Made by a program: the position numbers and the translations under genes | The notes under the pieces: model-generated | Seen by the model: only the letters and a program-made list of their open reading frames with translations | Databases searched by the model: none | Told to the model about the DNA's origin: nothing | IMG/VR virus record: IMGVR_UViG_2651869695_000012 | Strand: one strand, 5' to 3' | Length of the DNA: 38,818 bases | From: a virus | Taxonomy: Duplodnaviria > Heunggongvirae > Uroviricota > Caudoviricetes | Shown: positions 21,361 through 37,427 of the stretch, piece by piece | Layout of the letters: the number at the start of each line of letters is the position of its first letter | Numbering within the stretch: position 1 is the stretch's first letter

Positions 21361-21426
21361 AACCCCACCTCGCAGATGCGGGTGCTGTGTAATGGAAATA
21401 AAAAGGCCACCTACGTGGCCACCAGA

Positions 21427-22479
21427 TTATTTCCCCACCAGCTCGTTTATCTCTTTCACTGTCTGGTTAAACCGCTCTGACTCAAGCTCAACACCTAAGG
21501 CCCGACGCCCCAGCGCCATTGCTGCTTTTATTGTGGAACCGGATCCCATAAAAAAATCAGCAACCAGATCACCAGGTCGACTACTGGCATTGATTATTTG
21601 CCGGAGCATATCCGCAGGTTTCTCACACGGATGTTTACCCGGGTAGAACTGAACGGGTTTATGCATCCAGACATCGGTATAAGGCACGGAGACTGATACG
21701 GAGAAATAGCGCCGGAGAGATTTAAACTCATCCAGCAATTCAGAATATTTGCGATTCAGTGAATCATAAGATGCCACCAGCTGGTGGTGTGGTTGTTCCA
21801 GTTGTTGTTCCTGAAACTTCTCTGCCGCTATACGGGAAAACAGTGCCTGTAACTTCCGATAGTCAGCCTCATTCGGCAACTGCCACTGACTGGCACCAAA
21901 CCAGTGGGAAACCATATTTTTCTTACCTGTGGCTTCGGCAATTTGTTTTGCCGTTATACCCAGTTCGGCACGAGCATCCCTGAAATACGAAATCAGCGGT
22001 GCCATTATGTGCTGTTTGAGTTCCCTTTCTTTTGCCGCATAGCCGTCACTTTTGCCGCGATATGGCCCCTGGTAATGTTCAGCAAACAGAACGCGCTCTG
22101 TGGCTGGAAAATATGCACGCAGACTTTCTTTATTACACCCATTCCAACGTCCGGACGGCTTCGCCCAGATGATATGGTTAAGCACGTTGAAACGTTCACG
22201 CATCATGATCTCAATATCAGATGCCAGGCGATGCCCACAGAACAGGTAAAGGCTTCCGGCAGGTTTTAACACCCGCCAGAACTGGGCCAGACAGTGGTCC
22301 AGCCACTTAAGGTAATCTTCGTCCCCTTTCCACTGATTGTCCCAGCCGTTGGGTTTCACCTTGAAGTACGGCGGATCGGTAACAATCAGGTCAATGGAAT
22401 CATCAGGCAGGGACTGAATAAAATGCAGGCAATCAGCGTTGATTAAATCAACACTGTTTATTTTTACAGTATTTTTCAT
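21427..22479 (-). CDS. Orphan DNA methyltransferase (beta-class N6-adenine or N4-cytosine)
   Basis: 350 aa; motif IV LIVTDPPYF near the N-terminus and motif I FxGxG (DFFMGSGSTIKAA) near the C-terminus; no adjacent restriction endonuclease ORF. Confidence 0.85.
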   Translation of the reverse strand: MKNTVKINSVDLINADCLHFIQSLPDDSIDLIVTDPPYFKVKPNGWDNQWKGDEDYLKWLDHCLAQFWRVLKPAGSLYLFCGHRLASDIEIMMRERFNVLNHIIWAKPSGRWNGCNKESLRAYFPATERVLFAEHYQGPYRGKSDGYAAKERELKQHIMAPLISYFRDARAELGITAKQIAEATGKKNMVSHWFGASQWQLPNEADYRKLQALFSRIAAEKFQEQQLEQPHHQLVASYDSLNRKYSELLDEFKSLRRYFSVSVSVPYTDVWMHKPVQFYPGKHPCEKPADMLRQIINASSRPGDLVADFFMGSGSTIKAAMALGRRALGVELESERFNQTVKEINELVGK

Positions 22480-22629
22480 GGATCAGTAAGCGTAACTCTG
22501 GTAGGCTCACTCTGCTTTTGCGCTAAAGCAGTGGGCCGTGGTTCGCTTGTGACCAGTAAGCATGAGCGAATGGCTGGCAGGTGCTACCAACACCCACCAG
22601 CCGCCCATTTTCACAGCAGGAAACCGCCA

Positions 22630-22857
22630 TTACTGGCAGCGTCTGAATTTATTCCCGTACCCGCCGTTATCCTTCGCCAGACCCGCCAGAACTAACTGAG
22701 TCAGTATTAACTGGCACCGGGCTTCGCTTACTCCGGTAGTTCTCGTCATCATGCGTGGCGTTACCCACTTGTCAGCAGGTAAGAAATGAAGGACTGCGGC
22801 GGCGGTTTCTGTCATATCTTGCTGTTTTAGCATGTCTTTTTCCCTTCTGGTTAACAT
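22630..22857 (-). CDS. Small hypothetical protein with possible HTH, upstream of the methyltransferase
   Basis: 75-aa ORF with several candidate ATG starts (22857, 22833, 22815); helix-turn-helix-like VTPRMMTRTTGVSEARCQLILTQL; weak RBS. Confidence 0.3.
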   Translation of the reverse strand: MLTRREKDMLKQQDMTETAAAVLHFLPADKWVTPRMMTRTTGVSEARCQLILTQLVLAGLAKDNGGYGNKFRRCQ

Positions 22858-23103
22858 GACATACCAATAACTCTTGTCTAAAAAGCCAGCAAGATAAAAA
22901 GTCAGTATTCACGACCACCAGCGTGTTTACTGTACTGCACCAGGTTTACAGGTACAAAAAAACCGCTCAGCGGCGGGTTTAAGTTGTGTGGCGAAGTAAC
23001 CACTCTTAACAGCATATTTGATTTTTTACGATTGTAAACGGTTGATTATTCATCTCCAATAAAAATAATTGTGTGGGTATGCCCTTAACAATGGATAAGA
23101 AAC

Positions 23104-23550
23104 ATGAATAAAATGACTGTACTATTACTTAGCGCAACTATCATTTCAGGTTGTACTTCTTCCGTACCATTGATAAAGAAAACTCAATCAGGAAAACCTG
23201 AGGGGGTTTATCAAAATACGACAAAAGATAAAGTCAAAGATGCCCTTGTGAATTACTGCAATAGTAGAGGGTTGATAATTTACAACGCGGATAACAGCAG
23301 TGTTATATGTGGTAAAGAACTGGAAGGCGGCTCTGCTGTTTTTGGACAAATGTTAATCGGCAATGCCTATTCAACAACCCCGGTATCAAAAGTCAGATTT
23401 ACTATCGCTCAAGTTAATAACGATACAAAAGTGTGGGCCGATATGTGGATGGAAACTCAAATGGCAATGGGGCAAGTACAACAAATGTCTATAACAGACA
23501 ACGCAAGCAAAAACACTATCCAACAACGTCTTGATGAATTAAAACCTTAA
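23104..23550 (+). CDS. Lipoprotein moron, antisense to the late operon
   Basis: 148 aa; signal peptide with lipobox (IISGC); AT-rich island between Q and the methyltransferase; own RBS and start on the plus strand. Confidence 0.6.
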   Translation: MNKMTVLLLSATIISGCTSSVPLIKKTQSGKPEGVYQNTTKDKVKDALVNYCNSRGLIIYNADNSSVICGKELEGGSAVFGQMLIGNAYSTTPVSKVRFTIAQVNNDTKVWADMWMETQMAMGQVQQMSITDNASKNTIQQRLDELKP

Positions 23551-23588
23551 ATAAATTAAATAAAATGGGGAGAATAAATCGACTCCCC
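23546..23588 (-). terminator. Intrinsic terminator just downstream of Q (tR'-like) and just past the convergent lipoprotein gene
   Basis: Minus-strand read GGGGAG-(10 nt loop)-CUCCCC followed by AUUUUAUUUAAUUUAUUU; ~40 nt after the Q stop. Confidence 0.55.
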
Positions 23589-23630
23589 ACACATTAAACT
23601 GATTCAATTACCCCCTCAATAAGAGGTCTT

Positions 23631-24011
23631 CTAACGATCCATCTCTAGCTCAATTTCTAACATCATTAACATGCCATCAACTACACCTTCAGCCTTTTGC
23701 AATAAACGCCCAACCCAGCAATCAGAACGCCCATGTTTACGGGCAAGCGCCATAAAAGTCATACCACCTACATAATAATCCACTAATAAATCGTGCAAAT
23801 CGCTGTTGTTCTTTTTCAGGCGAGCCATGCATCCACAAATGATCATCGCGTCATCGTCACAACATTGCGGGCGGGATTTTACTTTTGAAGGGATTAGTCC
23901 TTTAAATCCTGCAGCAATAGACGACCAGGTGACATCCTCGTGATTATTTGCCACCCATGCCCCCCAACGTTCAAGAACCATTTGAATATCACGCATCAAC
24001 TTTCTCCACAA
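23631..24011 (-). CDS. Late-gene antiterminator Q (small, DLP12 quuD-like)
   Basis: 126 aa; Cys cluster [17 protein letters not shown] suggests a zinc site; position immediately upstream of the terminator and lysis cassette. Confidence 0.7.
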
Positions 24012-24013
24012 AA

Positions 24014-25009
24014 TCAGGCCAGCACGCCAATTGCCAGCGCACGATCGATAAAACGAAATATCAGCTCCAGCTGGGAGCCATACTTCTCTTCAAATGCCAC
24101 GGTATCCGCATGCAGCTCGTCGTGATGCTTTCTGCACAAAGGCAACACAAAAAGGTCATGCGCTTTTGTTCCCATTCCACCCTGACCGTGACCTATCAGG
24201 TGGTGGGGATCATCAGCGGGCTTTCCACAACATGCACACGGCTGTGTCTTAACCCAGCGCGTGTACTTTTCATTAACCCAGCGGCGACGTTTTGGGCGTA
24301 ACATAAAAGACTCCGGCGACTCCGGATCCACTTTCAGCGCCAGCACCTTTTTCGCCTTATCCTGGATGATGCTGGTGGCAGGAACCGAAGGCACAAGGTC
24401 ACTTTCCCGGGTAACAGACGGCACAACAGGCTTCGGTAATCTCAGTGCCTTACGGGCTGCACTTTCCGGTAAGGCATCCGCCAGATCATTACGAATCAGC
24501 CACCAGCACAGTTCCGGCATTGTCACAACGTGACTGTCATCAAAACCGAGATCCCGACGCACAACAGACAACACCCAGCGGGCACAGTTATCCGTTGCCA
24601 TTGATTCCAGCCGTTCCGTGAACTGATCGCGCAGCTGGTTATCGCAGTGCCAGCACAGACGGATTGCACCCGGAGCGTGTCGCATTGTGGTCATGTTCTC
24701 GCTGTGCCAGTCGGAATGAGGCCACTGGCAGCCTTTTTCACGAAGTAACCAGCTTTCAAGACATTCCACGCCACCAGCACGACGGATCACTGCCTCATTG
24801 CGGAACACGGCCCGAACGGCAGGATCATCCGCCAGCGGTTGTGATGCCGCCGGAACGGCACCACTGGCGAAAGATGAATAACGCTCCGGCTCAGGCTCCA
24901 GCAGGACACGCCCCTGCATAAACAGGGGCATCAGCTCTGAACCTGGCCTGAACAATACGATCCCCATACGCGGGGCAATTTCAGGGGTCAGTAGTGCTCT
25001 CACGGTCAC
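24014..25009 (-). CDS. DUF968-like phage protein with C-terminal HNH-like zinc motif
   Basis: 331 aa; C-terminal [43 protein letters not shown] (Cys-x2-Cys ... HH ... H). Confidence 0.6.
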
Positions 25010-25010
25010 C

Positions 25011-25820
25011 TCAATGAACGGTATCGAGCAGCTTTAACAGCTCAGAGAATCGGGATTCGAAGAAATGCGGCTGCGTCTCGCGCGGATTTGCGGGACTGGT
25101 GATGTTCTTGCCGAACATGCAGCCTTTCGCTGTCAGCGACCAGAATTTTTTGATGTTGTTAATCGCGGTACGGCTGTATCGTTCGCGCTGCTCGACGATC
25201 CCCAGTTTCACCATCTGGTGATATGCCTGATTAGCCGTCAGGCGTATACCATACTGTTTCAGCAGTGCACTCAGTGACAGTGTCGGGCGACTTGAGCCAT
25301 CGTGTGCATCAGCAGGAGCATCAATGGCATAGCGCGGTGCCAGATTCGGTAAGCCAACAGCCTCCTGGAGTTTCTGACAGGCACCAAGCACTGAAGAGTT
25401 AGACAGGTTTAACTCCCGGCGCATAAAGTCCAGCAGGATCACGCCAGCCTGCATCTTGTCAGCAGCCTGTCCGGATAATTTTTCCGGTGCGCTGGTTACC
25501 ATATCGAAAGTACGGATCACCTTCAGATGGAATGACGGGCTGATCCACATTGCATAGGCATACACCAGTTCCTTGCAGACATACGTTCCCCGTTCATTTC
25601 CCCCATGAATCACACTCACCGGGTCAACACCCAAATTCTGGGTGTTGGTCAATTCATGAACAAGCTCAACAGTTTGTTGGCTGGAAAGAAACTTTCCCGG
25701 CTCCTTGGTTCTGGCATTTGCACCAGATGCTACTGCTGCGCGATGCAGATCGTTCAGGCTGTAACGCCCATAAGCATCACGACGAACTTCAATACCATCA
25801 ATGACCATCAGATTATTCAT
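25011..25820 (-). CDS. KilA-N domain protein (antirepressor/regulatory family)
   Basis: Start at ATG 25820 with GGAG RBS; N-terminal domain with GTYVCKELVYAYAMWISPSFHLKVIRTF, the KilA-N signature. Confidence 0.7.
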   Translation of the reverse strand: MNNLMVIDGIEVRRDAYGRYSLNDLHRAAVASGANARTKEPGKFLSSQQTVELVHELTNTQNLGVDPVSVIHGGNERGTYVCKELVYAYAMWISPSFHLKVIRTFDMVTSAPEKLSGQAADKMQAGVILLDFMRRELNLSNSSVLGACQKLQEAVGLPNLAPRYAIDAPADAHDGSSRPTLSLSALLKQYGIRLTANQAYHQMVKLGIVEQRERYSRTAINNIKKFWSLTAKGCMFGKNITSPANPRETQPHFFESRFSELLKLLDTVH

Positions 25821-25839
25821 ACTTCGTTTCTCCTCTTGA

Positions 25840-26229
25840 TCAGGCGGCTGCACCCGCCGTTTTCTCGTACTTACTGATAGTGATCTCGACCTTCCCTTTC
25901 GGGATAACCGGTCCCCACTCCACCAGCATTCTTTTCACCTGACTGTCGTCTTCCCACACACCCGCATGGGTCAGGGCGTCAAACAGCGCCTTGTTATAGT
26001 TGTCCAGATCGCGGATCCGGTTATCCGGAGGAAACAACACGATCTCCACTGAAGCAGGTGCCGACGTTGGTTTCGGCAGACGACGTAACTGCTCAACTAT
26101 TGCTGCGCACGCCGCGCTCTGGAATTTTCGCCCCGCCGAGCTTATCAGGCTCTTACCAGCAAACGCCCCTTTGTTGGGGTGTCGCCAGTACGTGTTCACG
26201 CTGGGCGGAAAAGGCAGGATCAGCTTCAT
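25840..26229 (-). CDS. rusA: RusA-family Holliday junction resolvase
   Basis: 129 aa; LPFPPSVNTYWRH and DLDNYNKALFDALT motifs typical of RusA. Confidence 0.85.
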   Translation of the reverse strand: MKLILPFPPSVNTYWRHPNKGAFAGKSLISSAGRKFQSAACAAIVEQLRRLPKPTSAPASVEIVLFPPDNRIRDLDNYNKALFDALTHAGVWEDDSQVKRMLVEWGPVIPKGKVEITISKYEKTAGAAA

Positions 26230-26552
26230 GCTTTCAGGCCTCTCTCATGTAACCAGTGGGTTGCACGCAGCCTTGCGTTTTCCTCACCGGCAAGCAGTGA
26301 GCGGATAATCCCGACCGCCTCGCTGTCGTCGTCCTTCACCGCGGTATGAAGCGTGATCCCCCGGGCCACGCCACGCTTTATCGTGATGACGCCTTTTTTC
26401 TCCAGTGCGCGAAGATGCTCCACCGCTGCATTCACTGAACGGTATCCCAGCATGGTTGCCACCTCCTGATTGGTTGGCGGGAAGCCACGTTCTTTCTGAT
26501 AAGAAATCAGCATATCCAGCACCTGCTGCTGGCATTGAGTTAACGTCGTCAT
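26226..26552 (-). CDS. LexA-N-terminal-like winged-helix DNA-binding protein
   Basis: 108 aa; LTQCQQQVLDMLISYQKERGFPPTNQEVATMLGYRSVNAAVEHLRALEKKGVI resembles the LexA DNA-binding domain; no peptidase domain. Confidence 0.6.
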   Translation of the reverse strand: MTTLTQCQQQVLDMLISYQKERGFPPTNQEVATMLGYRSVNAAVEHLRALEKKGVITIKRGVARGITLHTAVKDDDSEAVGIIRSLLAGEENARLRATHWLHERGLKA

Positions 26553-27202
26553 GCCGCCATCTCCCTGACCAGTTTTTCTGCCTGCTGGCGAACCTGCGCC
26601 AGAAACGCCTCACCACATGCCTCAAGTTCATCGCGCCCGATGTAGCTGATTGCCGGTCCCTTCCAGGTCTTGTCGAAAACAGCAATAGCACCAGCGAAGA
26701 AAGCGCCTGTCGGCACCTGCTTCTCATCTTTCGGGATAAACCAGGCAGGCAGTTCAAAACCAATACGCCCGCGAATAAAAGCAATATGATCTGCATCTTC
26801 CGGCCACCACACTTCGCAGGTGGCAGCTTTGATCAGGAAAACATAGCGCCCGCCTTTATCACGCATGGCACTGGCATGTTTCATGATGTAACGCATGCCG
26901 GTGATGTATTGCCCCTCATGCTGACTGGCGCGGCTGTATGGGGGATTACCAAAGGCAGCACCTTTAAGCTCCGCAAGACGTTCTGACCAGTCATGCGCCA
27001 GCGCGTTGTCTTCCGCCGTGTAATACGCGGTACATTTGGCGTTATCACCGTCAGTAAACAGATCCAGGACAAACGGGCCAAACAGGGTGTTAATTCCCCA
27101 GAAAATGTTATCCGGCGTGCGCCACTGATCGCCCACTTCCTTCAGTTCATGGGCTGGTTTGTTCCGCAGTTCCACCAGCGCCCGGCAATATTTATTACTC
27201 AT
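26549..27202 (-). CDS. Phage Dam-type N6-adenine DNA methyltransferase (orphan)
   Basis: Start at ATG 27202 (MSNKYCRAL...), 1-nt overlap with the upstream stop; catalytic NPPY motif (GNPPYS). Confidence 0.8.
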   Translation of the reverse strand: MSNKYCRALVELRNKPAHELKEVGDQWRTPDNIFWGINTLFGPFVLDLFTDGDNAKCTAYYTAEDNALAHDWSERLAELKGAAFGNPPYSRASQHEGQYITGMRYIMKHASAMRDKGGRYVFLIKAATCEVWWPEDADHIAFIRGRIGFELPAWFIPKDEKQVPTGAFFAGAIAVFDKTWKGPAISYIGRDELEACGEAFLAQVRQQAEKLVREMAA

Positions 27203-27690
27203 TAAGCCCCCACGTAATTCCCTGACAGATACCACTCTTCACCCGATGCAGCGCGCTTGCTGCTTTTCCGTAAGCACCGCTCACGACGTGCCAGAAAATT
27301 GTTTCGTTCTGGCTGGGAGTGGCTTTCACGGAATGCCGCCATCCACACGGTTGCAGCACGACGGTATAAGCCCCTTGACTCCAGTTCTTCCGCCTGGCGG
27401 GTCAGGCACAAAATCACCCGCGGGTCGTTAGTGCCGACATAGAAATTGCGCACAGGTCTGGTTTCACGAACTGGTTGTGGTTCCAGCTCCTGCGCTCTCT
27501 CAGTCAGGCGCGGGAAATGTCTGCGTGTATCTCCTTCACAACGGTGAGCCACACGCCCACTCTGACGTAACTTGCTTGCATACTGCAGAACGCGCTGCCG
27601 TGAGTAACCTGCAAAAGCATCCGCAATGTCTCCGGAAGTACACCCCGGATGGGCTTCAATGAATTTCTGAACTTCATTCAAAAGACTCAT
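27202..27690 (-). CDS. PerC/ANR-like regulatory protein
   Basis: Start at ATG 27690; C-terminal segment LTRQAEELESRGLYRRAATVWMAAF resembles the PerC family. Confidence 0.5.
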   Translation of the reverse strand: MSLLNEVQKFIEAHPGCTSGDIADAFAGYSRQRVLQYASKLRQSGRVAHRCEGDTRRHFPRLTERAQELEPQPVRETRPVRNFYVGTNDPRVILCLTRQAEELESRGLYRRAATVWMAAFRESHSQPERNNFLARRERCLRKSSKRAASGEEWYLSGNYVGA

Positions 27691-27692
27691 GA

Positions 27693-28511
27693 TCACCCCC
27701 TGAATCCTGCCGGGATCTGGCTGTAGTCCACGTTGTCGTAACTGGCTTTGAAGTACGGGTCCTCACGTCTGGCTGCAGATACCGCAGGAACTTCCCAGGA
27801 TTCTTCGAAATGACGATCCGGACCAAAGAACGTGACAGCCTGTTTCACAAATTGTGTGCCGCTGTTACCCATCGCAGATACCCAGCCCGCGTAGCGTTTC
27901 ACACCTTCCAGCATGGTTTCGGGGTTTACCCCCTCATTCAAACGGGCTTTCCAGGCTTTGAAGGCTGCAGATTTTGAATTGCCACCAGCACGTTTGGGAT
28001 ATGCCAGCCATGCCTGCTCAAACTCCGGAGAGTATTCCGGTCGGTTTGAACGAACTCGCACAGACTCATCAACTGATGCACCAACAGCTATTGGTTCATT
28101 GACTGGTTCTTTGACTGGTTCAAAAGAGTGACTGGTTCTGGGTGAATCTCCTGCACTACCCCCTGGTGCAACTCCTGCACTACCTGGTGAATTTGCTGCG
28201 CCAGATAGTGAATTATTTGCACTACCCCCTAGTGAATCTCCTGCACCATCCAGATGAAGGAGATAGATATTACTTGAGTTACCTTTTTCACCTTTCCGGG
28301 TGACTTTTTTTACCAGCCCGGACTCACAAAGGGCCGCAATATGATTCATCACAGAACGTTTGCTAATCTCGCACTGGTCAGCAATATGCTGGTAGCTGGG
28401 CCAGCACTCCCCCTGATCGCTGGCATTATCAGCCAGCTTGATCAGAACCAGTTTTCGCAATGGATTACCCACTCGAATTTTCATCGCTTTAACCATCAGC
28501 TCCATACTCAT
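27693..28511 (-). CDS. Replication initiator (lambda O-like organisation) with origin iterons inside the coding sequence
   Basis: 272 aa; N-terminal HTH (VGNPLRKLVLIKLADNASDQGECWPSYQHIADQCEISKRSVMNHIAAL); low-complexity Gly/Ser/Ala/Pro linker whose DNA carries direct repeats; C-terminal domain. Confidence 0.7.
   Translation of the reverse strand: MSMELMVKAMKIRVGNPLRKLVLIKLADNASDQGECWPSYQHIADQCEISKRSVMNHIAALCESGLVKKVTRKGEKGNSSNIYLLHLDGAGDSLGGSANNSLSGAANSPGSAGVAPGGSAGDSPRTSHSFEPVKEPVNEPIAVGASVDESVRVRSNRPEYSPEFEQAWLAYPKRAGGNSKSAAFKAWKARLNEGVNPETMLEGVKRYAGWVSAMGNSGTQFVKQAVTFFGPDRHFEESWEVPAVSAARREDPYFKASYDNVDYSQIPAGFRG
28090..28260. repeat. Iteron array (candidate origin of replication) inside the replication initiator gene
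   Basis: Three copies of TGACTGGTTC (28099-28138) and about five degenerate ~21-24-bp repeats of the form AATCTCCTGCACTACCCCCTGGTG (28143-28255), read directly. Confidence 0.55.
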
Positions 28512-28732
28512 GCAGCACCTCCGAGATGCTTCATGTTTTTTCCGGAGCGAAAGGCTATAAGCGGCATACTGACGCGGTAATTACGGCCCAGCGGTTCACA
28601 AATCACCTTCTGACATTCACGGTCAACCAGGCTAACACGTAGAACATGCCCTGCAGGTGTGGTGTACCACTGACCCGGACGAGGACAACGGAAAGTCTGA
28701 TTGGTAAACCGTTTGAAAATATTCCGGATCAT
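28508..28732 (-). CDS. Small hypothetical phage protein
   Basis: 74-aa ORF with start overlapping the upstream stop (ATGA) and stop overlapping the replication gene start; no family recognised. Confidence 0.4.
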   Translation of the reverse strand: MIRNIFKRFTNQTFRCPRPGQWYTTPAGHVLRVSLVDRECQKVICEPLGRNYRVSMPLIAFRSGKNMKHLGGAA

Positions 28733-29889
28733 TTGCGCCCCCTTACCTCTGAAGGGTTCAGCGACAAATTTATGAGGCAGGCCAGCGCCGAAGCATCATT
28801 AATATAATCATATAAGCTAACAGCCAGCGGAGATTCAGCTTTTGCCAACATAGGATAAAGCTGCTGCAGCCAGACCTTGTGGATTACCGACAGGTGGGAG
28901 TAAAGCACGCTGGCGTTATCTGCGGCATCGCTCAGCGTGGATGGCTTTGAAAGCAGTTTTTCCATCTGGTTAAAGGCATTGATGTATGCCTCTTTGAACC
29001 GGGCAGCACGTTTACCCGTGAAACCCATAGCAAGAAACGCAAAACCGTCTCGTGTGATTTGATAGCAAGGGAGCTTGCGTGTACCACCGTTCGGTTGATT
29101 TACCGAAATCGATGTCTCCGCAAAATTGCGGGCACAAAACTCAGGGGAACAATCCAGAGTGCGGATCTTTTTCAGCACATCGTCGTGACGCTTGGAGAAG
29201 AAGTTGGCAACAGCCAAAGAAGTGGTAACGGCCTGGCCGTTGTCAATGGTGATTTCAGGTTGAGTGAGGGCTTGGATCGTAGCCATGATGGCAGCCTCCG
29301 TTGACAGTGAAAAACTTCCACCACCGGAAACGCCAATTTCACTGGTGGTGAACTGGACGGGGTTGGCGTAACCGGCGTCAACGGAGACCGGCGCACCTTT
29401 CGGTGCCCCCGCCCAGCCCACCATAATCTGGATGTGAGCAAATGCGGACGATAAAAAAGACGCTGGCGCGTCATACATCGCCGTTGACAATTTCAGGACG
29501 CCAATCCCGGCACCCGCTTTATAAGGTGCCTGAACAGTGTAACGTCCCGGAATTGCAGAATCAATATGCTGGTGGTCCTTCACACTCAACAAAATCACGC
29601 CTGAATTTCCACAAAGGACTAAAGCACTCATGCGGGTAGTCTTTGCGAAGATAGATAACGCGCTGTGTTTCTGGCTCCCAACGAATAACATGAACATAAA
29701 GTCCTCTTCCGTCACGAAACCAGCGGTTAAGTTCCTGCACAACTCGCCCCCCACAGTCAGGTAAAGTTCTCTGTGGTTACTTACAGCCAGGTGATTTGGT
29801 AATCTGCATTCATGCCGTAACAACAGGTGTGCAGCGACACTGACCACCAGCTGTTGCGACAAACGGTTATTTGCCGTTAAACTGTTCAT
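28729..29889 (-). CDS. Protein with C-terminal Rha-like phage regulatory domain; possible internal start at 29286
   Basis: 386-aa ORF whose ATG at 29889 overlaps the CII-like stop (ATGA); C-terminal half carries a Rha-like segment (VTTSLAVANFFSKRHDDVLKKIRTLD); strong GGAGG RBS precedes internal ATG 29286. Confidence 0.5.
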   Translation of the reverse strand: MNSLTANNRLSQQLVVSVAAHLLLRHECRLPNHLAVSNHRELYLTVGGELCRNLTAGFVTEEDFMFMLFVGSQKHSALSIFAKTTRMSALVLCGNSGVILLSVKDHQHIDSAIPGRYTVQAPYKAGAGIGVLKLSTAMYDAPASFLSSAFAHIQIMVGWAGAPKGAPVSVDAGYANPVQFTTSEIGVSGGGSFSLSTEAAIMATIQALTQPEITIDNGQAVTTSLAVANFFSKRHDDVLKKIRTLDCSPEFCARNFAETSISVNQPNGGTRKLPCYQITRDGFAFLAMGFTGKRAARFKEAYINAFNQMEKLLSKPSTLSDAADNASVLYSHLSVIHKVWLQQLYPMLAKAESPLAVSLYDYINDASALACLINLSLNPSEVRGRK

Positions 29890-30437
29890 GCGTTAGTTTC
29901 TCCACAGACACAAAACGCCACGACGCCCGGAGCTGCACACTCGCGGGCGTTACTCTTTTCTGGAGCGCAGAAGATTTTGTAGACCAGTGCTGCATGCTCC
30001 TGGAGCTTCGAAATTGACAGATACAACTCATCATTAATTGCTGTCTGCTCGTGTGGCTCCACTACCCCATCTTCGATTGCCGAACGAATCTGCTTTGAGT
30101 AACTCCCGATCTGTTCGATGACTTCCAGCAGGCGCTGGTTTATATCGGCGTTCTCTACTTCCTCAATTTCTGGAAGTGATACAAACACCCCACCAGCAGA
30201 CTGTGCGACAGCATCCGCAATGTGGTGAGTACCAGCCGCACGCTGTAAAACCATTGCCCATCCCAACGGAAAAAACTGATCGCCATCGGCACGAAGGCGG
30301 TTGAATAAAGCGTTCTCTGTTACATCCAGCCACTCAGCAGCTTCAGCGTAACCCCCCGGCAACACCGCGATAGTTTTTCTGACAGCTTTCACGTACCACT
30401 CAGGCTGTTTTTCCACTTTCCAGTGATGCTTACCCAC
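29886..30437 (-). CDS. CII-like regulatory protein (CP76-type)
   Basis: 183 aa, second gene of the cro-side operon, overlapping the cro stop; family assignment from memory of the CP76 pattern. Confidence 0.5.
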   Translation of the reverse strand: MGKHHWKVEKQPEWYVKAVRKTIAVLPGGYAEAAEWLDVTENALFNRLRADGDQFFPLGWAMVLQRAAGTHHIADAVAQSAGGVFVSLPEIEEVENADINQRLLEVIEQIGSYSKQIRSAIEDGVVEPHEQTAINDELYLSISKLQEHAALVYKIFCAPEKSNARECAAPGVVAFCVCGETNA

Positions 30438-30787: not shown

Positions 30788-31480
30788 ATGAACATAGGAA
30801 ATCGAGTCAGACAACTTCGCCAGGCGAAGAACATGAAAATCGCCGATCTCGCTGAAGCAATAGGAGTGGATGCGGCGAATATCTCGCGCCTCGAAACAGG
30901 TAAGCAGAAACAATTCACTGAACAAGCCCTGAGTAATATTGCCAGGAGCTTAGGTGTTGATATTGCTGATCTCTTTACCTCAGACCTCAAAAGTAATACT
31001 GTATGTAAAAACAGTATTAGTGAGGATGTTGCGCAGGTGAAGGATGTATTCCGTATTGAAATGCTGGATGTCAGTGCCAGTGCGGGAAATGGCCTTATCC
31101 AGGGCGGTGATGTCATTGATGTGATTCATGCCATTGAATACAGAACTGATAATGCTGTATCGATGTTTGGTGGACGACCAGCAAATCACATTAAAGTTAT
31201 CAACGTTCGTGGGGACAGTATGTGTCCAACCATTGAGCCAGGAGATCTCATCTTCGTTGATATCAGTATCAATCAGTTTGATGGGGATGGTATATATGTA
31301 TTTGGTTTTGATGATAAAATTTACGTCAAACGACTGCAAATGATACCTGATAAACTGCTGGTAATTTCTGATAATCAGATTTACCGCGAATGGGGAATTA
31401 CCAGCGAAAACGAACATCGGTTTATGGTCTTTGGAAAGGTCTTAATCAGTCAGTCACAAACCCTTAAGCGACACAATTAA
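30788..31480 (+). CDS. CI-like repressor: N-terminal XRE HTH plus C-terminal S24 (LexA-like) autopeptidase
   Basis: 230 aa; HTH VRQLRQAKNMKIADLAEAIGVDAANISRLE; Ala-Gly cleavage site (SASAGNG); Ser nucleophile in GDSM and Lys in VKRL. Confidence 0.9.
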   Translation: MNIGNRVRQLRQAKNMKIADLAEAIGVDAANISRLETGKQKQFTEQALSNIARSLGVDIADLFTSDLKSNTVCKNSISEDVAQVKDVFRIEMLDVSASAGNGLIQGGDVIDVIHAIEYRTDNAVSMFGGRPANHIKVINVRGDSMCPTIEPGDLIFVDISINQFDGDGIYVFGFDDKIYVKRLQMIPDKLLVISDNQIYREWGITSENEHRFMVFGKVLISQSQTLKRHN

Positions 31481-32611: not shown

Positions 32612-33436
32612 ATGTCTCAGAACTTAGACGCAACCGCAATTAATCAAATCCATGCTCTTATTTCTGCTCAGGGTGTTAATGAAATTATCAGTAAGATTGG
32701 TGCCGATGCTGTGGCATTGCCTGAGAATTTCCGCATTCATGATCTGGAAAAATTTAATTTAAATCGCTTCCGTTTCCGTGGTGCGCTTTCCACTGCCAGC
32801 ATCGATGACTTTACCCGTTATTCTAAAGATCTTGCAGATGAAGGCACCCGCTGCTTTATCGATGCCGATAATATGCGAGCCGTCAGTGTGCTTAACCTAG
32901 GTACTATTGATGAACCAGGTCACGCAGATAACACCGCCACTCTTAAACTGAAAAAGACAGCACCGTTCTCTGCTCTGTTGTCTGTTAATGGCGAGCGTCA
33001 TTCCCAGAAGTCACTGGCAGAATGGATTGAAGACTGGGCCGACTACCTTGTGGGCTTTGATGCTAATGGTGACGCTATTCAGGCAACAAAAGCGGCTGCG
33101 GCTGTCCGTAAAATCACGATTGAAGCAAACCAGACCGCTGATTTTGAAGATAATGACTTCAGCGGCAAACGCTCCCTGATGGAATCTGTCGAAGCGAAAA
33201 CCAAAGATATTATGCCAGTGGCATTTGAATTTAAATGCGTTCCGTTTGAAGGTCTGAAAGAACGTCCATTTAAATTACGCCTCAGCATTATCACTGGCGA
33301 TCGTCCTGTACTGGTTCTGCGCATTATTCAGATGGAGGCGGTGCAGGAAGAAATGGCTAACGAATTTCGTGATCTGCTTGTTGAGAAATTCAAAGACAGC
33401 AAAGTAGAAACCTTTATTGGTACTTTCACCGCCTGA
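32612..33436 (+). CDS. DUF2303/YfdQ-like phage protein
   Basis: 274 aa, GAGGA RBS; length and composition recall CPS-53 YfdQ (from memory, not verified). Confidence 0.55.
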
Positions 33437-33563
33437 TTTCATTACTGCAAATGCCCCTGCGGGGGCATTTATGGAAACGTAATTGACTCAATAATCGCCG
33501 GATGGTGAGGGCTTCCTTTTACCAGAATTCAGCGTGGTGCAGCACATATACGCGGAGAACAAA

Positions 33564-34100
33564 ATGTCATTTATTAAAACTTTTTCCGGGAAGCATTTTT
33601 ATTATGACAGGATAAATAAAGACGACATCGTGATTAACGATATCGCGGTTTCCCTTTCAAATATCTGTCGCTTTGCCGGTCATCTTTCACACTTCTACAG
33701 TGTCGCCCAACATGCGGTGCTTTGCAGCCAGCTGGTGCCGCAGGAATTTGCTTTTGAAGCGTTAATGCATGATGCAACAGAAGCATATTGCCAGGACATC
33801 CCCGCGCCACTGAAACGCCTTCTTCCTGACTATAAACGGATGGAAGAAAAAATAGACGCCGTAATCCGTGAGAAATACGGGTTACCTCCTGTTATGAGCA
33901 CGCCAGTGAAATATGCCGATCTCATTATGCTGGCAACCGAACGCCGCGATCTCGGGCTTGATGATGGCTCTTTCTGGCCGGTACTGGAAGGCATCCCGGC
34001 AACAGAGATGTTCAAAGTGATTCCACTGTCACCAGGCCATGCCTACGGGGTGTTTATGGAACGTTTTAACGAGTTATCGGAGTTACGCAAATGCGCATGA
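33564..34100 (+). CDS. HD-domain phosphohydrolase (YfdR-like 5'-deoxynucleotidase)
   Basis: ATG 33564 with GGAG RBS; HD motifs (SVAQHAVLCS ... ALMHDATEAY); ~178 aa. Confidence 0.7.
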   Translation: MSFIKTFSGKHFYYDRINKDDIVINDIAVSLSNICRFAGHLSHFYSVAQHAVLCSQLVPQEFAFEALMHDATEAYCQDIPAPLKRLLPDYKRMEEKIDAVIREKYGLPPVMSTPVKYADLIMLATERRDLGLDDGSFWPVLEGIPATEMFKVIPLSPGHAYGVFMERFNELSELRKCA

Positions 34101-34453
34101 ATGTTTTCGAAATGGAAGGGTTTCTTCGCGGGAAATGTGTACCGCGTGATCTGAAAGTGAACGAAACAAATGCTGAGTACCTGGTACGTAAATTCGATGC
34201 GCTTGAAGCTAAATGTGCGGCACTGGAAAACAAAATAATACCAGTGTCAGCTGAACTGCCACCAGCAAATGAAAGTGTTCTGTTATTTGATGCTAACGGA
34301 GAAGGCTGGCTAATTGGCTGGCGTTCTCTCTGGTACACCTGGGGACAAAAAGAAACCGGAGAATGGCAGTGGACATTTCAGGTCGGGGACCTTGAAAACG
34401 TCAATATCACTCACTGGGCAGTAATGCCGAAAGCACCGGAGGCAGGAGCATAA
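34091..34453 (+). CDS. DUF551-like phage protein (YfdS-like)
   Basis: 120 aa; C-terminal W-rich segment ending ITHWAVMP typical of DUF551; start overlaps the previous gene. Confidence 0.5.
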   Translation: MRMNVFEMEGFLRGKCVPRDLKVNETNAEYLVRKFDALEAKCAALENKIIPVSAELPPANESVLLFDANGEGWLIGWRSLWYTWGQKETGEWQWTFQVGDLENVNITHWAVMPKAPEAGA

Positions 34454-35097
34454 TGATCACGTTTACCGACAAAGAACTGATTAAAGAAATCAAAGAGCGC
34501 ATAGGAAGCCTGGATGTGAGAGACAATATTGAACGCCGTGCTTATGAAATCGCACTGGCATCGCTGGAAGAGGATCCGGTGGCATGGCTGCATTCAGACA
34601 ATGGATTAGGTATTCCGGCAATAACCAGGAGTAAAAAAATTGCTGACAGTTGGTTATCGAAGGGCTGGTATGTTCAGCCGCTATATATAGCTCAGCCAGT
34701 ACACGTGCCGGAGGAAATGAATCTGGCACGCGCACAGAAAGAGGTGGGTTTTAATCGATATATCAGGGCTGGGTATGTTGATGGCTGGAACGCCTGCCGC
34801 GCCACCATGCTTCATGGTGCCAAACCTGTAAGCCAGACTTACAAGTTGAACAAGCTGTCGGGCAACTCTCCGGTAACTCCGGATGGCTGGATAAGCTGTA
34901 GTGAGCGAATGCCGAACGATAAACAGTATGTTTGGTGTTGGGGTAAGTCTTACGGCTGGACTGAGTGCGATACCTTCGAAGGGTATTATGATTGTTCGAG
35001 AAACAAATGGTGGGCAGTTACTGACAATGGGGAAGAACCGGCATCGAAAGTAACCCACTGGATGCCGCTACCGGAACCGCCGCAGGAGGTGAAGTAA
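34453..35097 (+). CDS. DUF551-like phage protein (YfdT-like)
   Basis: 214 aa; C-terminal VTHWMPLPEPP; translationally coupled to the upstream gene (TAATG). Confidence 0.5.
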   Translation: MITFTDKELIKEIKERIGSLDVRDNIERRAYEIALASLEEDPVAWLHSDNGLGIPAITRSKKIADSWLSKGWYVQPLYIAQPVHVPEEMNLARAQKEVGFNRYIRAGYVDGWNACRATMLHGAKPVSQTYKLNKLSGNSPVTPDGWISCSERMPNDKQYVWCWGKSYGWTECDTFEGYYDCSRNKWWAVTDNGEEPASKVTHWMPLPEPPQEVK

Positions 35098-35831: not shown

Positions 35832-37427
35832 ATGGCTGAAGCAGCAAAAAAAAACCCACAAAAGCTGAATGAAAAAAAAGGCTCAACATCGGCATCATCA
35901 CTTGATATTGTGAATTCACGACAATCAAAGGATATTTATCTTGGATTGTGTGGATATGTTGGATGTGGCATGAGAACGATAAACAAAATTATCGAAGAGA
36001 TATCCAAAGAATGGGGGTATAATGTTGTACACATCCGCATAAGTGCGCTTATGGAAAACCCATTATATTTTGAGCCAGCAGCACTGAAGGTATCCGAAAG
36101 CACACAAGTTAATAGACATTTAAAACTCCAGGATATTGCCAATAAACTTCGTAAACATTACAAAAAAAATGAGTTGCTTGCAGAAGCTGCTATTGCAGCA
36201 ATCGCAGCAGAGAAAAATAATATTGTTTATAATAATGATGAATATAAAGGTACTGTCTTCATCATTGATCAATTCAAAAGGCCGGAAGAAATAGAGTTAT
36301 TCAGAGTTATATATCAGCATAATTTCTATTTGTTAGGAGTTTTGCGCGATTTAGATTACCGAATTCAGAATCTCATTGATGACGAATCGACAAAGAACGA
36401 TCTTCATTTAATTATCAATATTGATAATAAATCCTCTGATCCGTATGGACAAAGAACCGGGGAAACCATTCTTGATTCAGATTTTTTTATTAAAAATAAC
36501 TTCAGCCAAAAAAGTGAATTAAAGAAGAAGATTGATCGGTTTTTCGGTCTTATTCATGGCAAAAATGGTTTAACACCAACTTTTAACGAGAAAGGTATGT
36601 ATGCTGCCTTTTCAACATCATTACAATCAGCTTGTTTATCACGTCAAGTAGGGGCTGCACTGTTTGATGATGAAGGGAATTTGCTTGCCGTGGGTAAGAA
36701 CGACGTACCTAAAGCTGGTGGCGGGTTGTATAGCAGTGATGATTTTGATAACGATCATCGATGCGTTCACAAAAGTGGTAAGTGTTATAATGATGCAAAC
36801 AAGCTAAAAATTAAAGACCGTATAAAAAGCATATTATCAACCGAAGTAAGAACTGTATTAGGTATTTCCGCAGGACAAACTGTTGCCGATATTAATATAA
36901 CACGACTTCTAAACAAATTAGATAATATTGCAGAAGGCATTTACAAAGACAGCAAAATATCAAGTGTAATGGAATACTCCAGATCAATTCATGCTGAAAT
37001 GGACGTCATTACATCAATGGCTAGAAAACAAAACGGCGATACTAAAGATAAAATTCTTTTTACGACAACCTATCCCTGCCACAACTGTGCAAGGCATATT
37101 GTCGCAGCTGGAATAAAAAAAGTAGTATATATAGAGCCATTTGATAAAAGCCTTGCTCTTGATCTGCATAATGATGCAATAACAAAGAACGAAGAATCTT
37201 CCAAAGTAATATTTTGTGATTTTGAGGGGGTATCACCCCGCCGCTACCATAAATTTTTCAGACCAACGGATGAACGTAAAGATGATAAAACAGGGGCTGC
37301 AAATAAATTTAATGCTCGCTACGAAAATCATATAGATGTTCAATATCTTGATGATTATAGAAAGTATGAGACTGTTGTAGCTAAGAAATTTATAAACGAG
37401 ATTGCTAAACCAGAGTCTCAGCCATAA
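35832..37427 (+). CDS. Two-domain P-loop-like NTPase + zinc dCMP/cytidine deaminase protein; candidate AvcD/DCD-type nucleotide-depletion anti-phage protein
   Basis: 531 aa; N-terminal Gly-rich loop LGLCGYVGCGMRT; C-terminal deaminase signature: CLSRQVGAALF, zinc ligands HAE (SIHAEMDV) and PCxxC (TYPCHNCARH); AT-rich; terminator hairpin directly downstream. Confidence 0.75.
   Translation: MAEAAKKNPQKLNEKKGSTSASSLDIVNSRQSKDIYLGLCGYVGCGMRTINKIIEEISKEWGYNVVHIRISALMENPLYFEPAALKVSESTQVNRHLKLQDIANKLRKHYKKNELLAEAAIAAIAAEKNNIVYNNDEYKGTVFIIDQFKRPEEIELFRVIYQHNFYLLGVLRDLDYRIQNLIDDESTKNDLHLIINIDNKSSDPYGQRTGETILDSDFFIKNNFSQKSELKKKIDRFFGLIHGKNGLTPTFNEKGMYAAFSTSLQSACLSRQVGAALFDDEGNLLAVGKNDVPKAGGGLYSSDDFDNDHRCVHKSGKCYNDANKLKIKDRIKSILSTEVRTVLGISAGQTVADINITRLLNKLDNIAEGIYKDSKISSVMEYSRSIHAEMDVITSMARKQNGDTKDKILFTTTYPCHNCARHIVAAGIKKVVYIEPFDKSLALDLHNDAITKNEESSKVIFCDFEGVSPRRYHKFFRPTDERKDDKTGAANKFNARYENHIDVQYLDDYRKYETVVAKKFINEIAKPESQP

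Follow-up and report, generated by a model that had tools for sequence, protein, structure and literature searches.

Related adenine methyltransferases

The closest characterised relative of the protein described here, at 33% identity, is M.Phi93DAM of Lactococcus phage Phi93, a small, single-domain phage orphan of the Pfam family PF05869 (E=6e-34) that methylates GATC, as seen by DpnI/DpnII digestion and SMRT sequencing (PMC4190342). M.EcoVT2Dam of Stx2 phages (VT2-Sakai orf32/933W type) belongs to the same family and is described as a GATC methylase in a passage of PMC6602927 that cites Radlinska & Bujnicki 2001. We infer that this enzyme is VT2-Sakai orf32 (PF05869 E=6e-65), the sole methylase-like ORF annotated within the initial 50 kb of a record that is 60.9 kb long. 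T1 Dam, another orphan of the family (PF05869 E=1.7e-70), reportedly has GATC specificity, and the Dam protein of H. influenzae phage HP1 is likewise said to be a GATC methylase. E. coli Dam, T4 Dam and DpnM, which are alpha-class enzymes (PF02086), have DPPY and a separate recognition domain, and M.EcoGII and M.EcoGI are non-specific adenine methyltransferases of E. coli prophages.

In E. coli K-12, yfdM (b2356) lies in the cryptic prophage CPS-53/KpLE1 and encodes a 91-aa remnant that ends just past NPPY. Proteins of 217 aa named 'phage N-6-adenine-methyltransferase', identical in length to ours, are encoded by phages cdtI, SfII and 1720a-02 and by Stx2c phages, and both cdtI (AB285204) and 1720a-02 carry two methyltransferases in the same order as in the DNA analysed here; in cdtI both are annotated. 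The early methyltransferase and the two-methyltransferase layout reported below are, accordingly, already known.

Genomic context of the early methyltransferase

The analysed stretch of DNA (the window, 38,818 nucleotides) is a cdtI/mEp460-like lambdoid prophage. Its rightward early operon runs in the order CII-like protein, Rha/Ash, replication protein, YfdN, methyltransferase, LexA-N-domain protein, RusA, KilA-N, DUF968 and Q, and the features considered here are as follows.

27202..27696, minus strand: YfdN/PerC-family protein, 164 aa, the upstream neighbour (PF06069 E=7.6e-9; named yfdN or PerC in RefSeq genomes)
27200..27204, minus strand: TAATG, in which the yfdN/PerC stop overlaps the methyltransferase start by one base, with a G5 run (GTGGGGGCTTAATG) before it
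26549..27202, minus strand: orphan phage N6-adenine DNA methyltransferase gene (ORF; PF05869, TIGR01712 and PADLOC matches)
27059..27073, minus strand: codons F44-V-L-D47-L48, predicted first beta strand (strand 44-48 in the AlphaFold model)
26933..26950, minus strand: catalytic motif IV (NPPY), codons G85-N86-P87-P88-Y89-S90, reading GGTAATCCCCCATACAGC
26816..26818, minus strand: codon 129, TGC (Cys), the allele-specific S129C; Ser fills at least 90% of this family column
26549..26552, minus strand: ATGA, in which the start of the LexA-N-domain gene overlaps the methyltransferase stop, as read from the sequence
26226..26552, minus strand: downstream neighbour, 108 aa, a LexA DNA-binding domain alone (PF01726 E=2.9e-19, residues 1-65)
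25840..26229: RusA (Pfam)
25011..25853: KilA-N (Pfam)
23631..24011, minus strand: antiterminator Q, the end of the methyltransferase's early operon (PF06530 E=2.1e-51)

The methyltransferase ORF encodes 217 aa between an ATG at 27202..27200 and a TGA at 26551..26549. An alternative reading of 228 aa is possible from a GTG at 27235; for a near-identical genome, PGAP, the annotation of RefSeq, chose the ATG and 217 aa. The TAATG overlap suggests that yfdN and the methyltransferase gene are translationally coupled. No promoter-like site was found on the minus strand from about 30700 to 23800, and the 108-aa LexA-N-domain protein gave no Pfam match to peptidase S24.

A first-pass annotation, made from the sequence alone, had placed the gene as an orphan in a nin-like region beside RusA and KilA-N. 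Both neighbours are where it put them, and the gene does lie between the replication gene and Q, in what corresponds to the nin region. Since Pfam and PADLOC searches of the flanking genes found no nuclease family and no restriction-enzyme match, and hence no nuclease partner, the description of the methyltransferase as an orphan also stands.

Judged by its sequence, the gene is an intact, full-length homologue of K-12 yfdM and an ordinary, common prophage gene. The K-12 protein is 98% identical over residues 1-89 but is a truncated remnant, whereas ours is complete and has the S129C change; the cdtI, 1720a-02 and SfII proteins are 98% identical across all 217 residues. The K-12 yfdM and phage 1720a-02 copies also share its flanks, with yfdN upstream and the LexA-like gene and rusA downstream. 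M.EcoVT2Dam likewise occupies the interval between the replication genes and Q of a lambdoid phage, but it has 175 aa, is 28-29% identical and is flanked by ninB/ninE instead of yfdN and the LexA-like gene.

Family membership and predicted fold

Profile searches against phage Dam families, which had been proposed as a check, placed the 217-aa protein well above both relevant cut-offs. The PF05869 'Dam' profile matched at E=1.1e-44 and 152.5 bits (Pfam cut-off 28.1), and the NCBIfam equivalog TIGR01712, 'phage N-6-adenine-methyltransferase', matched at E=2.9e-75 and 251.3 bits (curated cut-off 97.05 bits) over positions 1-165 of the 165-position profile. Scores so far above the curated cut-offs indicate that GNPPYS, which was correctly picked out in the initial reading and occupies residues 85-90, is not a chance motif. 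The PADLOC MTase_II model PDLC03263 (type II methyltransferase) matched residues 1-217 of 217 (E=5.9e-157), and PHROG 111 'DNA methyltransferase' was matched as well.

The term 'Dam-type', used at first for this protein, holds only in part. It is apt if taken to mean the small phage family PF05869 (HP1/T1/VT2 type), but not if taken to mean that of E. coli Dam, T4 Dam or DpnM: the Pfam search at E<=0.1 gave PF05869 alone and hence no PF02086, kinship with these alpha-class enzymes is absent at the sequence level (8-13% identity in structural alignments), and E. coli Dam is only a distant fold neighbour. Neither does the protein belong to MT-A70, for which there was no Pfam match; its motif is NPPY, not DPPW. 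As identities, M.EcoGV and M.EcoPA8orf6770P were rejected as MT-A70 enzymes with DPPW, and M.EcoGIX as plasmid-borne and single-strand specific. M.EcoMIV, the ST131 prophage 'Dam homolog', was set aside as a member of PF02086, a family other than PF05869.

Conservation within PF05869 extends well beyond the catalytic motif. Among 46 family members, N86 and Y89 are invariant and P87 and P88 at least 90% conserved. All 21 invariant columns in an alignment of the 217-aa protein with three characterised members are kept, including D25, W27, T29, P30, L46, D47, N54, C57, W72, NPPY, G145, R146 and F149; the protein thus has the DxWxTP near the N-terminus, the LD after strand 1, NxxC, W72 and GR..F. 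Of the nearly invariant columns, only position 129 deviates (S129C). L46 and D47 are conserved or invariant in the family, and the F44-L48 strand ending in D47 may correspond to a motif I-like, SAM-binding element.

With M.Phi93DAM the protein shares NPPY as the one recognisable classical motif and a G-x-A-x-F-x segment near residues 166-171. The lactococcal enzyme comes from a virulent phage that infects a Gram-positive host, where its gene lies in the packaging module; it is shorter (140 versus 217 aa) and has neither the NPPY-flanking insertions nor the C-terminal helix. T1 Dam, also from a virulent phage, is 23% identical; it is extended by 48 residues at the N-terminus and has 15 extra residues inserted elsewhere.

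Lack of a SAM-binding fold would have counted against the methyltransferase assignment, but the AlphaFold model, of moderate confidence, has a class I SAM-dependent methyltransferase fold resembling N6-adenine methyltransferases. The prediction is a single compact Rossmann-type domain in which D47 ends the first strand and NPPY (86-89) follows the fourth, and a separate target-recognition domain is absent from the 217-aa protein and from the PF05869 family. No solved structure matches closely (best Foldseek E 2.4e-3). Among the fold matches, PCIF1, an RNA cap m6A enzyme, ranks first, and the rRNA methyltransferases Erm, KsgA and METTL5 also appear. A phmmer search against all PDB chains returned noise alone (E about 1), so that sequence comparison points to no solved relative.

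Proposed function and target specificity

Taken together, we consider it very likely that the gene encodes an active orphan DNA N6-adenine methyltransferase of the PF05869/TIGR01712 family, expressed from the early operon. Because of its early-operon position and the start and stop overlaps with its neighbours, it would be silent in the lysogen and made only after induction or infection, during phage DNA replication and coupled to the adjacent genes. The enzyme would then methylate adenines of the replicating phage genome, most probably in GATC, topping up host Dam when replication outruns it or, where the host has no Dam, providing the mark itself. The phage would probably be shielded in this way from restriction enzymes that cut at GATC and from the treatment given to under-methylated DNA.

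GATC is the probable target by analogy, because the PF05869 members with measured specificity methylate this sequence. An enzyme specific for GATC seems superfluous in E. coli that is Dam+. This apparent redundancy would be lifted if the protein, while still a working DNA N6-adenine methyltransferase with this fold, belonged to a clade with a non-GATC, relaxed or degenerate target, adding a mark beyond that of host Dam, a reading that we regard as a serious but distinctly less probable alternative. In its favour, the protein is the most divergent member compared, with 23-33% identity to VT2 Dam, Phi93 DAM and T1 Dam versus 32-37% among those three. Its clade-specific insertions could plausibly form DNA-contact loops; they comprise ERLAE ahead of NPPY, some 10 residues following NPPYSR, and extra length in the 150-170 segment. 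The window, moreover, is neither specially enriched in GATC nor depleted of it: its 140 sites give observed/expected ratios of 0.93 (base composition) and 0.74 (Markov estimate), with no signal of avoidance or enrichment beyond the range of other 4-base palindromes. Against a changed target, however, GATC specificity holds over very distant members of PF05869, from coliphage T1, a VT2 phage and a lactococcal phage; a distinct recognition domain that could be exchanged is lacking in the family, and the invariant polar and aromatic residues of PF05869 are all retained in our protein.

Distribution, selection and the S129C allele

Copies of the gene with 95-99% identity are found in 42 phage records. 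Of 5426 complete E. coli genomes, 2120 (~39%) contain the gene, 1725 of them at near full length. The exact 217-aa sequence is already public in NCBI under the name 'phage N-6-adenine-methyltransferase'. Values of dN/dS were 0.08 against cdtI, 0.19 against 1720a-02 and 0.08 against ST64B, and by this sequence measure the gene is under purifying selection.

S129C is the single difference from the closest complete-genome copy, and this raises the alternative that the window allele is catalytically weak or dead, a decaying prophage gene disabled by S129C or other changes. Position 129 is Ser in all 157 retrieved homologues matched by motif search, in keeping with its conservation in at least 90% of the family, and prophage copies do decay: K-12 yfdM is cut right after NPPY, and about 400 E. 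coli genomes have partial copies only. We nonetheless consider an inactive allele unlikely, since the ORF has lost neither length nor any invariant residue, the Ser to Cys change is conservative, the same C129 allele occurs on 49 public contigs, and overall dN/dS is 0.08-0.19.

Possible partners and substrates other than DNA

The active DNA methyltransferase favoured here also has to be set against an enzyme that mainly methylates RNA, or one that needs a partner subunit from next door, either the YfdN/PerC or the LexA-N-domain protein. There is a precedent in M.EcoPA8orf6770P, the MT-A70 prophage enzyme of Stx phages, which was annotated as 'Dam' but proved to be an rRNA methyltransferase and needs PNB-2 to target 16S rRNA (PMC10810198); 'Dam' labels can therefore mislead. 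The resemblance of the predicted fold to PCIF1, Erm, KsgA and METTL5 points the same way, as do the tight coupling to the neighbours and the natural occurrence of YfdN-methyltransferase fusions of 380-382 aa. The 91-aa N-terminal fragment that is K-12 YfdM, moreover, has a reported phage phenotype, being needed by a T1-like phage (bioRxiv 10.1101/413146), and it is unlikely to be catalytic because the C-terminal half of the domain is missing. The protein, however, belongs to a family other than MT-A70, with NPPY rather than DPPW and PF05869 as its sole Pfam match, and the measured members of that family methylate DNA at GATC unaided when cloned. The fusions are accounted for by one extra G in the G5 run. 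Neither neighbour is conserved with the gene, as yfdN is absent in cdtI, the LexA-like gene in ST64B and both in phage Chi, and an obligate partnership with either protein is rejected on these grounds. We therefore regard a primary role in RNA methylation, or dependence on a partner, as quite improbable.

That the methyltransferase is not an orphan but supplies the modification function in a restriction-modification or other defence system is hardly credible: the PADLOC model is filed under 'MTase_II' and DUF968, three genes downstream, has a weak HNH-nuclease-like match (PF16784, 26.9 bits versus a cut-off of 26.6), but the flanking genes hold no restriction endonuclease family, DUF968 has no PADLOC match and adjoins Q in cdtI and 1720a-02 too, the methyltransferase occurs without DUF968 immediately downstream in ST64B and Chi, and a repressed lytic operon is incompatible with continuous host protection.

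A second methyltransferase in the late region

The prophage had also been said to carry an independent methyltransferase in its late region. One is indeed present and is unrelated to the early enzyme, so that the element carries two.

21427..22479, minus strand: second methyltransferase, 350 aa, beta-class N6/N4 type (PF01555 E=2.2e-42), between Q and the lysis genes

Lysozyme and Rz genes lie downstream of it, terminator-like hairpins are found nearby at 22974..22962 and 21420..21405, and no tRNA genes were found between Q and the late region. The late gene is carried by 2027 of 5426 E. coli genomes and has 99% nucleotide identity to those of cdtI, mEp460 and Ayreon; O104:H4 genomes were absent among the best 60 of 2034 E. 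coli matches.

The late ORF has the features of an M.EcoGII-like beta-class enzyme, namely a PF01555 match, DPPY near the N-terminus (residues 34-37), a central recognition region, a C-terminal FxGxG (FMGSGS near residue 311) and a prophage location. M.EcoGII and M.EcoGI are likewise prophage-borne beta-class enzymes with an N-terminal DPPY and a C-terminal FxGxG, and M.EcoGII has 349 aa to the 350 of the late ORF. The protein is 81% identical in amino acids to the methyltransferase of phage 1720a-02, which is very similar to M.EcoGII (PMC5778455, Murray et al.). On this comparison of sequences, the late enzyme is related to M.EcoGII, the link being an indirect one through the 1720a-02 homologue. 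By analogy it may be non-specific, and if so it would cover GATC too.

The suggestion that two independent methyltransferases provide layered anti-restriction or epigenetic control is a plausible guess. It is conceivable, though we hold the idea only tentatively, that the yfdM-type clade does more than duplicate host Dam, by virtue of a non-GATC or relaxed target, a second, non-catalytic role of its N-terminal half or a two-step programme shared with the late enzyme. A second role of this kind is hinted at by the report on the K-12 YfdM fragment (bioRxiv 10.1101/413146). The two-step programme would consist of early specific methylation followed by late blanket methylation by the M.EcoGII-like enzyme.

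Implications for the yfdM-type family

The early gene in itself has little discovery value, as it has a correct NCBI family name, is carried by roughly four of every ten complete E. coli genomes, and has its companion late methyltransferase in published phages. Several RefSeq phage records label it 'phosphoadenosine phosphosulfate reductase', which is very probably wrong: we rejected this label, as the match to phrog_33262 covers positions 283-492 only of a 495-position profile, and the name most likely stems from the part of that profile that the methyltransferase does not match.

In the literature, STEC and ST131 methylome studies included, we found no measured activity or target for the yfdM-type clade, so the 'Dam/GATC' labels attached to its members amount to inference. 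The specificity of this clade bears on thousands of annotations. The pairing of an early enzyme of the specific type with a late M.EcoGII-like enzyme also makes a tidy system in which to ask why temperate coliphages carry two adenine methylases.

A Dam-family methyltransferase in the early region

The open reading frame at 26549..27202 (-) comprises 217 codons from ATG to TGA, and its GNPPYS motif occupies residues 85-90 (codons at 26933..26950), exactly as reported in the first-pass annotation. That annotation had read it as a Dam-type methyltransferase and called for a profile search, the results of which support the reading. The protein matched PF05869 with E=1.1e-44 (152.5 bits against a gathering score of 28.1), no other Pfam family matching at E<=0.1, and covered the full profile of the NCBIfam equivalog TIGR01712, 'phage N-6-adenine-methyltransferase' (251 bits against a cut-off of 97). 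It also matched PHROG 111 ('DNA methyltransferase') and, end to end, the 217-position PADLOC type II methyltransferase model PDLC03263 (E=5.9e-157). Alignments that included three characterised members, plus 45 relatives drawn from three subclades, showed that all the invariant residues were retained: D25, W27, T29, P30, L46, D47, N54, C57, W72, N86-Y89, L123, G145, R146 and F149. Judged by its sequence, the protein clearly belongs to the small phage 'Dam' family.

An alternative GTG start at 27235 would give a protein of 228 aa; the ATG is used by the RefSeq annotation of a copy differing by one residue, and it overlaps the stop codon of the upstream gene (TAATG), just as the TGA overlaps the ATG of the next gene (ATGA). 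In phages SfII (NC_021857), Chi (NC_021315), Kati (PP925833) and Stx2a_WGPS2 (NC_049941), the gene is labelled 'phosphoadenosine phosphosulfate reductase'. The source of this label is phrog_33262, a 495-position profile that our protein matched at positions 283-492 only, and the label looks like a propagated mis-annotation.

A sequence-based search detected no solved structure for the protein. An AlphaFold2 model calculated from a 46-sequence alignment (mean pLDDT 70.6, pTM 0.73) has an alternating strand/helix core, and its structural matches were PCIF1 (9.7), MmeI (8.5), E. coli Dam (8.3), PacII (7.9), M.TaqI (7.9), DpnM (7.7) and T4 Dam (7.7), with a best Foldseek E-value of just 2.4e-3. 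The fold class is thus supported, although without a close solved relative, and so the lack of a SAM-binding fold, named beforehand as grounds for rejecting the assignment, was not what structural prediction returned. The conserved D47 lies at the end of the first strand of the model and NPPY comes after the strand at 82-85; motif I would precede motif IV in linear order, without a separate recognition domain.

Genomic context of the early methyltransferase

The genes between 23631 and 30437 are all - strand genes, the stop codon of one overlapping or abutting the start codon of the next, and no promoter-like site was found on this strand between ~30700 and 23800. The methyltransferase gene is therefore part of the rightward early operon, where lambda has its nin region, with RusA and KilA-N nearby as first described.

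Features of the early operon and the adjoining repressor gene
30788..31480, strand opposite to the operon, cI-type repressor
29886..30437, -, CII-like regulator
28729..29889, -, Rha/Ash
27693..28511, -, HTH_36/DnaD-like replication protein
27202..27696, -, YfdN (PerC family)
26549..27202, -, early methyltransferase
26816..26818, -, codon 129 of the early methyltransferase, Cys (S129C) in a family column at least 90% Ser
26226..26552, -, LexA DNA-binding domain only
25840..26229, -, RusA
25011..25853, -, KilA-N
24014..25009, -, DUF968
23631..24011, -, antiterminator Q

By analogy with established lambdoid biology, the early methyltransferase would be repressed in the lysogen and expressed upon induction. 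Neither Pfam nor PADLOC matched a restriction endonuclease family in the flanking genes, which justifies calling it an orphan.

The downstream LexA-type protein (108 aa) matched PF01726 over residues 1-65 and has no S24 peptidase domain in Pfam; by its domain content it would be a non-cleavable LexA look-alike. In RefSeq it is named 'LexA repressor' or 'LexA family transcriptional regulator'. This gene is missing next to the ST64B and Cronobacter/Atlantibacter homologues of the methyltransferase, which instead carry a C-terminal extension of 70-110 aa. Fusion proteins of 380-382 aa that join YfdN (PerC) in frame to the methyltransferase are numerous in the databases, two of them (P0012 and P0137) being found on 12 and 28 contigs, respectively. 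Their junction, ...VGGLMSNKY, is that expected from a +1 G in the G5 run of the window (GTGGGGGCTTAATG), at the boundary between the two genes (27195..27215, -), and the fusion may reflect either natural variation at a slippage-prone site or a sequencing error that recurs. The DUF968 protein, encoded directly 5' of Q, had a borderline match to the HNH-nuclease-like PF16784 (26.9 bits against a cut-off of 26.6); its homologue is labelled as a second 'antitermination protein Q' in the 1720a-02 record, probably an annotation slip.

Distribution and selection

The early methyltransferase is an ordinary prophage gene that is already annotated: NCBI and UniRef list the identical 217-aa protein under the name 'phage N-6-adenine-methyltransferase [Escherichia coli]'. 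Copies of the gene with 95-99% identity occur in 42 phage records, among them those of Stx2c phages, 1720a-02, cdtI and SfII. Of 5426 complete E. coli genomes, 2120 have the gene, and 1725 of these carry at least 80% of it. YfdM of K-12 (b2356, cryptic prophage CPS-53; 'putative methyltransferase') corresponds to the N-terminal 89 residues at 98% identity, ending just past NPPY, with yfdN upstream as in the window. The leftward early region (32612..35097, +) encodes DUF2303 (YfdQ), a YfbR-like 5'-deoxynucleotidase (YfdR) and two DUF551 proteins (YfdS/YfdT type), and because of these shared homologues the prophage looks like an intact relative of CPS-53. Near the prophage end, a 531-aa open reading frame (35832..37427, +) matched the PADLOC dCTP-deaminase anti-phage defence model PDLC02373 (E=1.1e-164) and the cytidine/deoxycytidylate deaminase domain PF00383 (E=6.9e-15), and looks like a prophage-borne nucleotide-depletion defence gene.

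Values of dN/dS (Nei-Gojobori, purpose-written script) were 0.08 against the cdtI copy, 0.19 against the 1720a-02 copy and 0.08 against ST64B gene Sb44 (69% identical), indicating purifying selection. Position 129 is Ser in 157/157 of the retrieved homologues that the motif search could match, and S129C is the sole difference between our protein and the nearest complete-genome copy. Because Ser to Cys is a conservative replacement and 49 public contigs carry the identical allele, inactivation is unlikely.

The late methyltransferase

The claim that the prophage carries two independent DNA-modification enzymes also held. The second, at 21427..22479 (-), has 350 aa, matched PF01555 (E=2.2e-42) and shows the motif order of the beta class, with DPPY at residues 34-37 and FMGSGS towards the C-terminus. 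A strong terminator-like hairpin (21420..21405) lies 3' of the gene, followed by the lysis genes. At the DNA level, the gene is 99% identical to methylase genes of cdtI, mEp460 and Ayreon. The protein is 81% identical to the 1720a-02 methyltransferase, itself very similar to M.EcoGII (Murray et al., PMC5778455), a prophage-encoded protein of 349 aa that modifies adenine irrespective of sequence context and stays silent in lysogens (PMC5778455); the homology-based link to M.EcoGII is thus indirect. Of the 5426 complete E. coli genomes, 2027 contain relatives of the 1720a-02 late gene, and a single genome may hold as many as seven.

A 19.8-kb stretch of the window is 96% identical to phage cdtI across 73% of its length. 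The cdtI record places 'dam' (orf47) and 'putative DNA methylase' (orf56) at positions corresponding to those of the two genes here, and 1720a-02 has both enzymes in the same order. Between Q and the late gene lies a 1.15-kb gap (22480..23630) comprising a non-coding stretch with a terminator-like hairpin (22974..22962), which may be a Q-dependent terminator, and a + strand open reading frame (23104..23550, 148 aa) with no Pfam match. No tRNA genes were found in this gap, whereas VT2-Sakai and similar Stx phages have tRNA genes past Q.

Predicted target and role

The three PF05869 members with measured targets that we compared are GATC methylases. T1 Dam (PF05869 E=1.7e-70) methylates GATC. 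The nin-region orf32 of VT2-Sakai (E=6e-65) is taken to be M.EcoVT2Dam, described as a GATC enzyme in a passage of PMC6602927 citing Radlinska & Bujnicki (2001), and for lactococcal M.Phi93DAM (E=6e-34) the target was established by digesting phage and plasmid DNA with DpnI and DpnII and by SMRT sequencing (PMC4190342). These enzymes share 32-37% mutual identity, whereas the early methyltransferase is 23-33% identical to them and has insertions of its own flanking NPPY and in the 150-170 segment. Family membership suggests that it probably targets GATC as well; given this divergence, we hold that preference with some reserve and regard another or relaxed target as unlikely, if worth keeping in view. 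The window contains 140 GATC sites, with neither avoidance nor enrichment beyond other 4-base palindromes.

Far less probable is a partner-dependent or RNA enzyme, for which M.EcoPA8orf6770P, a prophage protein annotated as a GATC Dam, offers a precedent as a 16S rRNA methyltransferase needing a partner protein (PMC10810198); it is, however, an MT-A70 protein with DPPW related to M.EcoGV (PMC10810198), a family unrelated to ours, and the early gene occurs elsewhere without its present neighbours (yfdN is absent from cdtI, the LexA-like gene from ST64B and both from Chi). The sole experimental phenotype tied to the lineage is propagation of the T1-like phage SW1, which is reported to require the truncated K-12 YfdM (bioRxiv 10.1101/413146), a propagation rather than a methylation phenotype; cut off at NPPY, this fragment is probably not a full enzyme.

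The observations of the first-pass annotation are thus confirmed and its interpretation is supported. As a putative GATC methylase, and by analogy with T1, P1 and lactococcal phage, the early enzyme would likely methylate replicating phage DNA faster than limited host Dam, or do so in Dam-less hosts. Such methylation would protect the DNA from MboI/DpnII-type restriction and from the processing of under-methylated DNA. Before packaging, adenines would then be methylated broadly by the late M.EcoGII-like enzyme, a role that Murray et al. (PMC5778455) proposed for M.EcoGII, and the suggestion that the two methyltransferases act in layers is compatible with such an early/late scheme.
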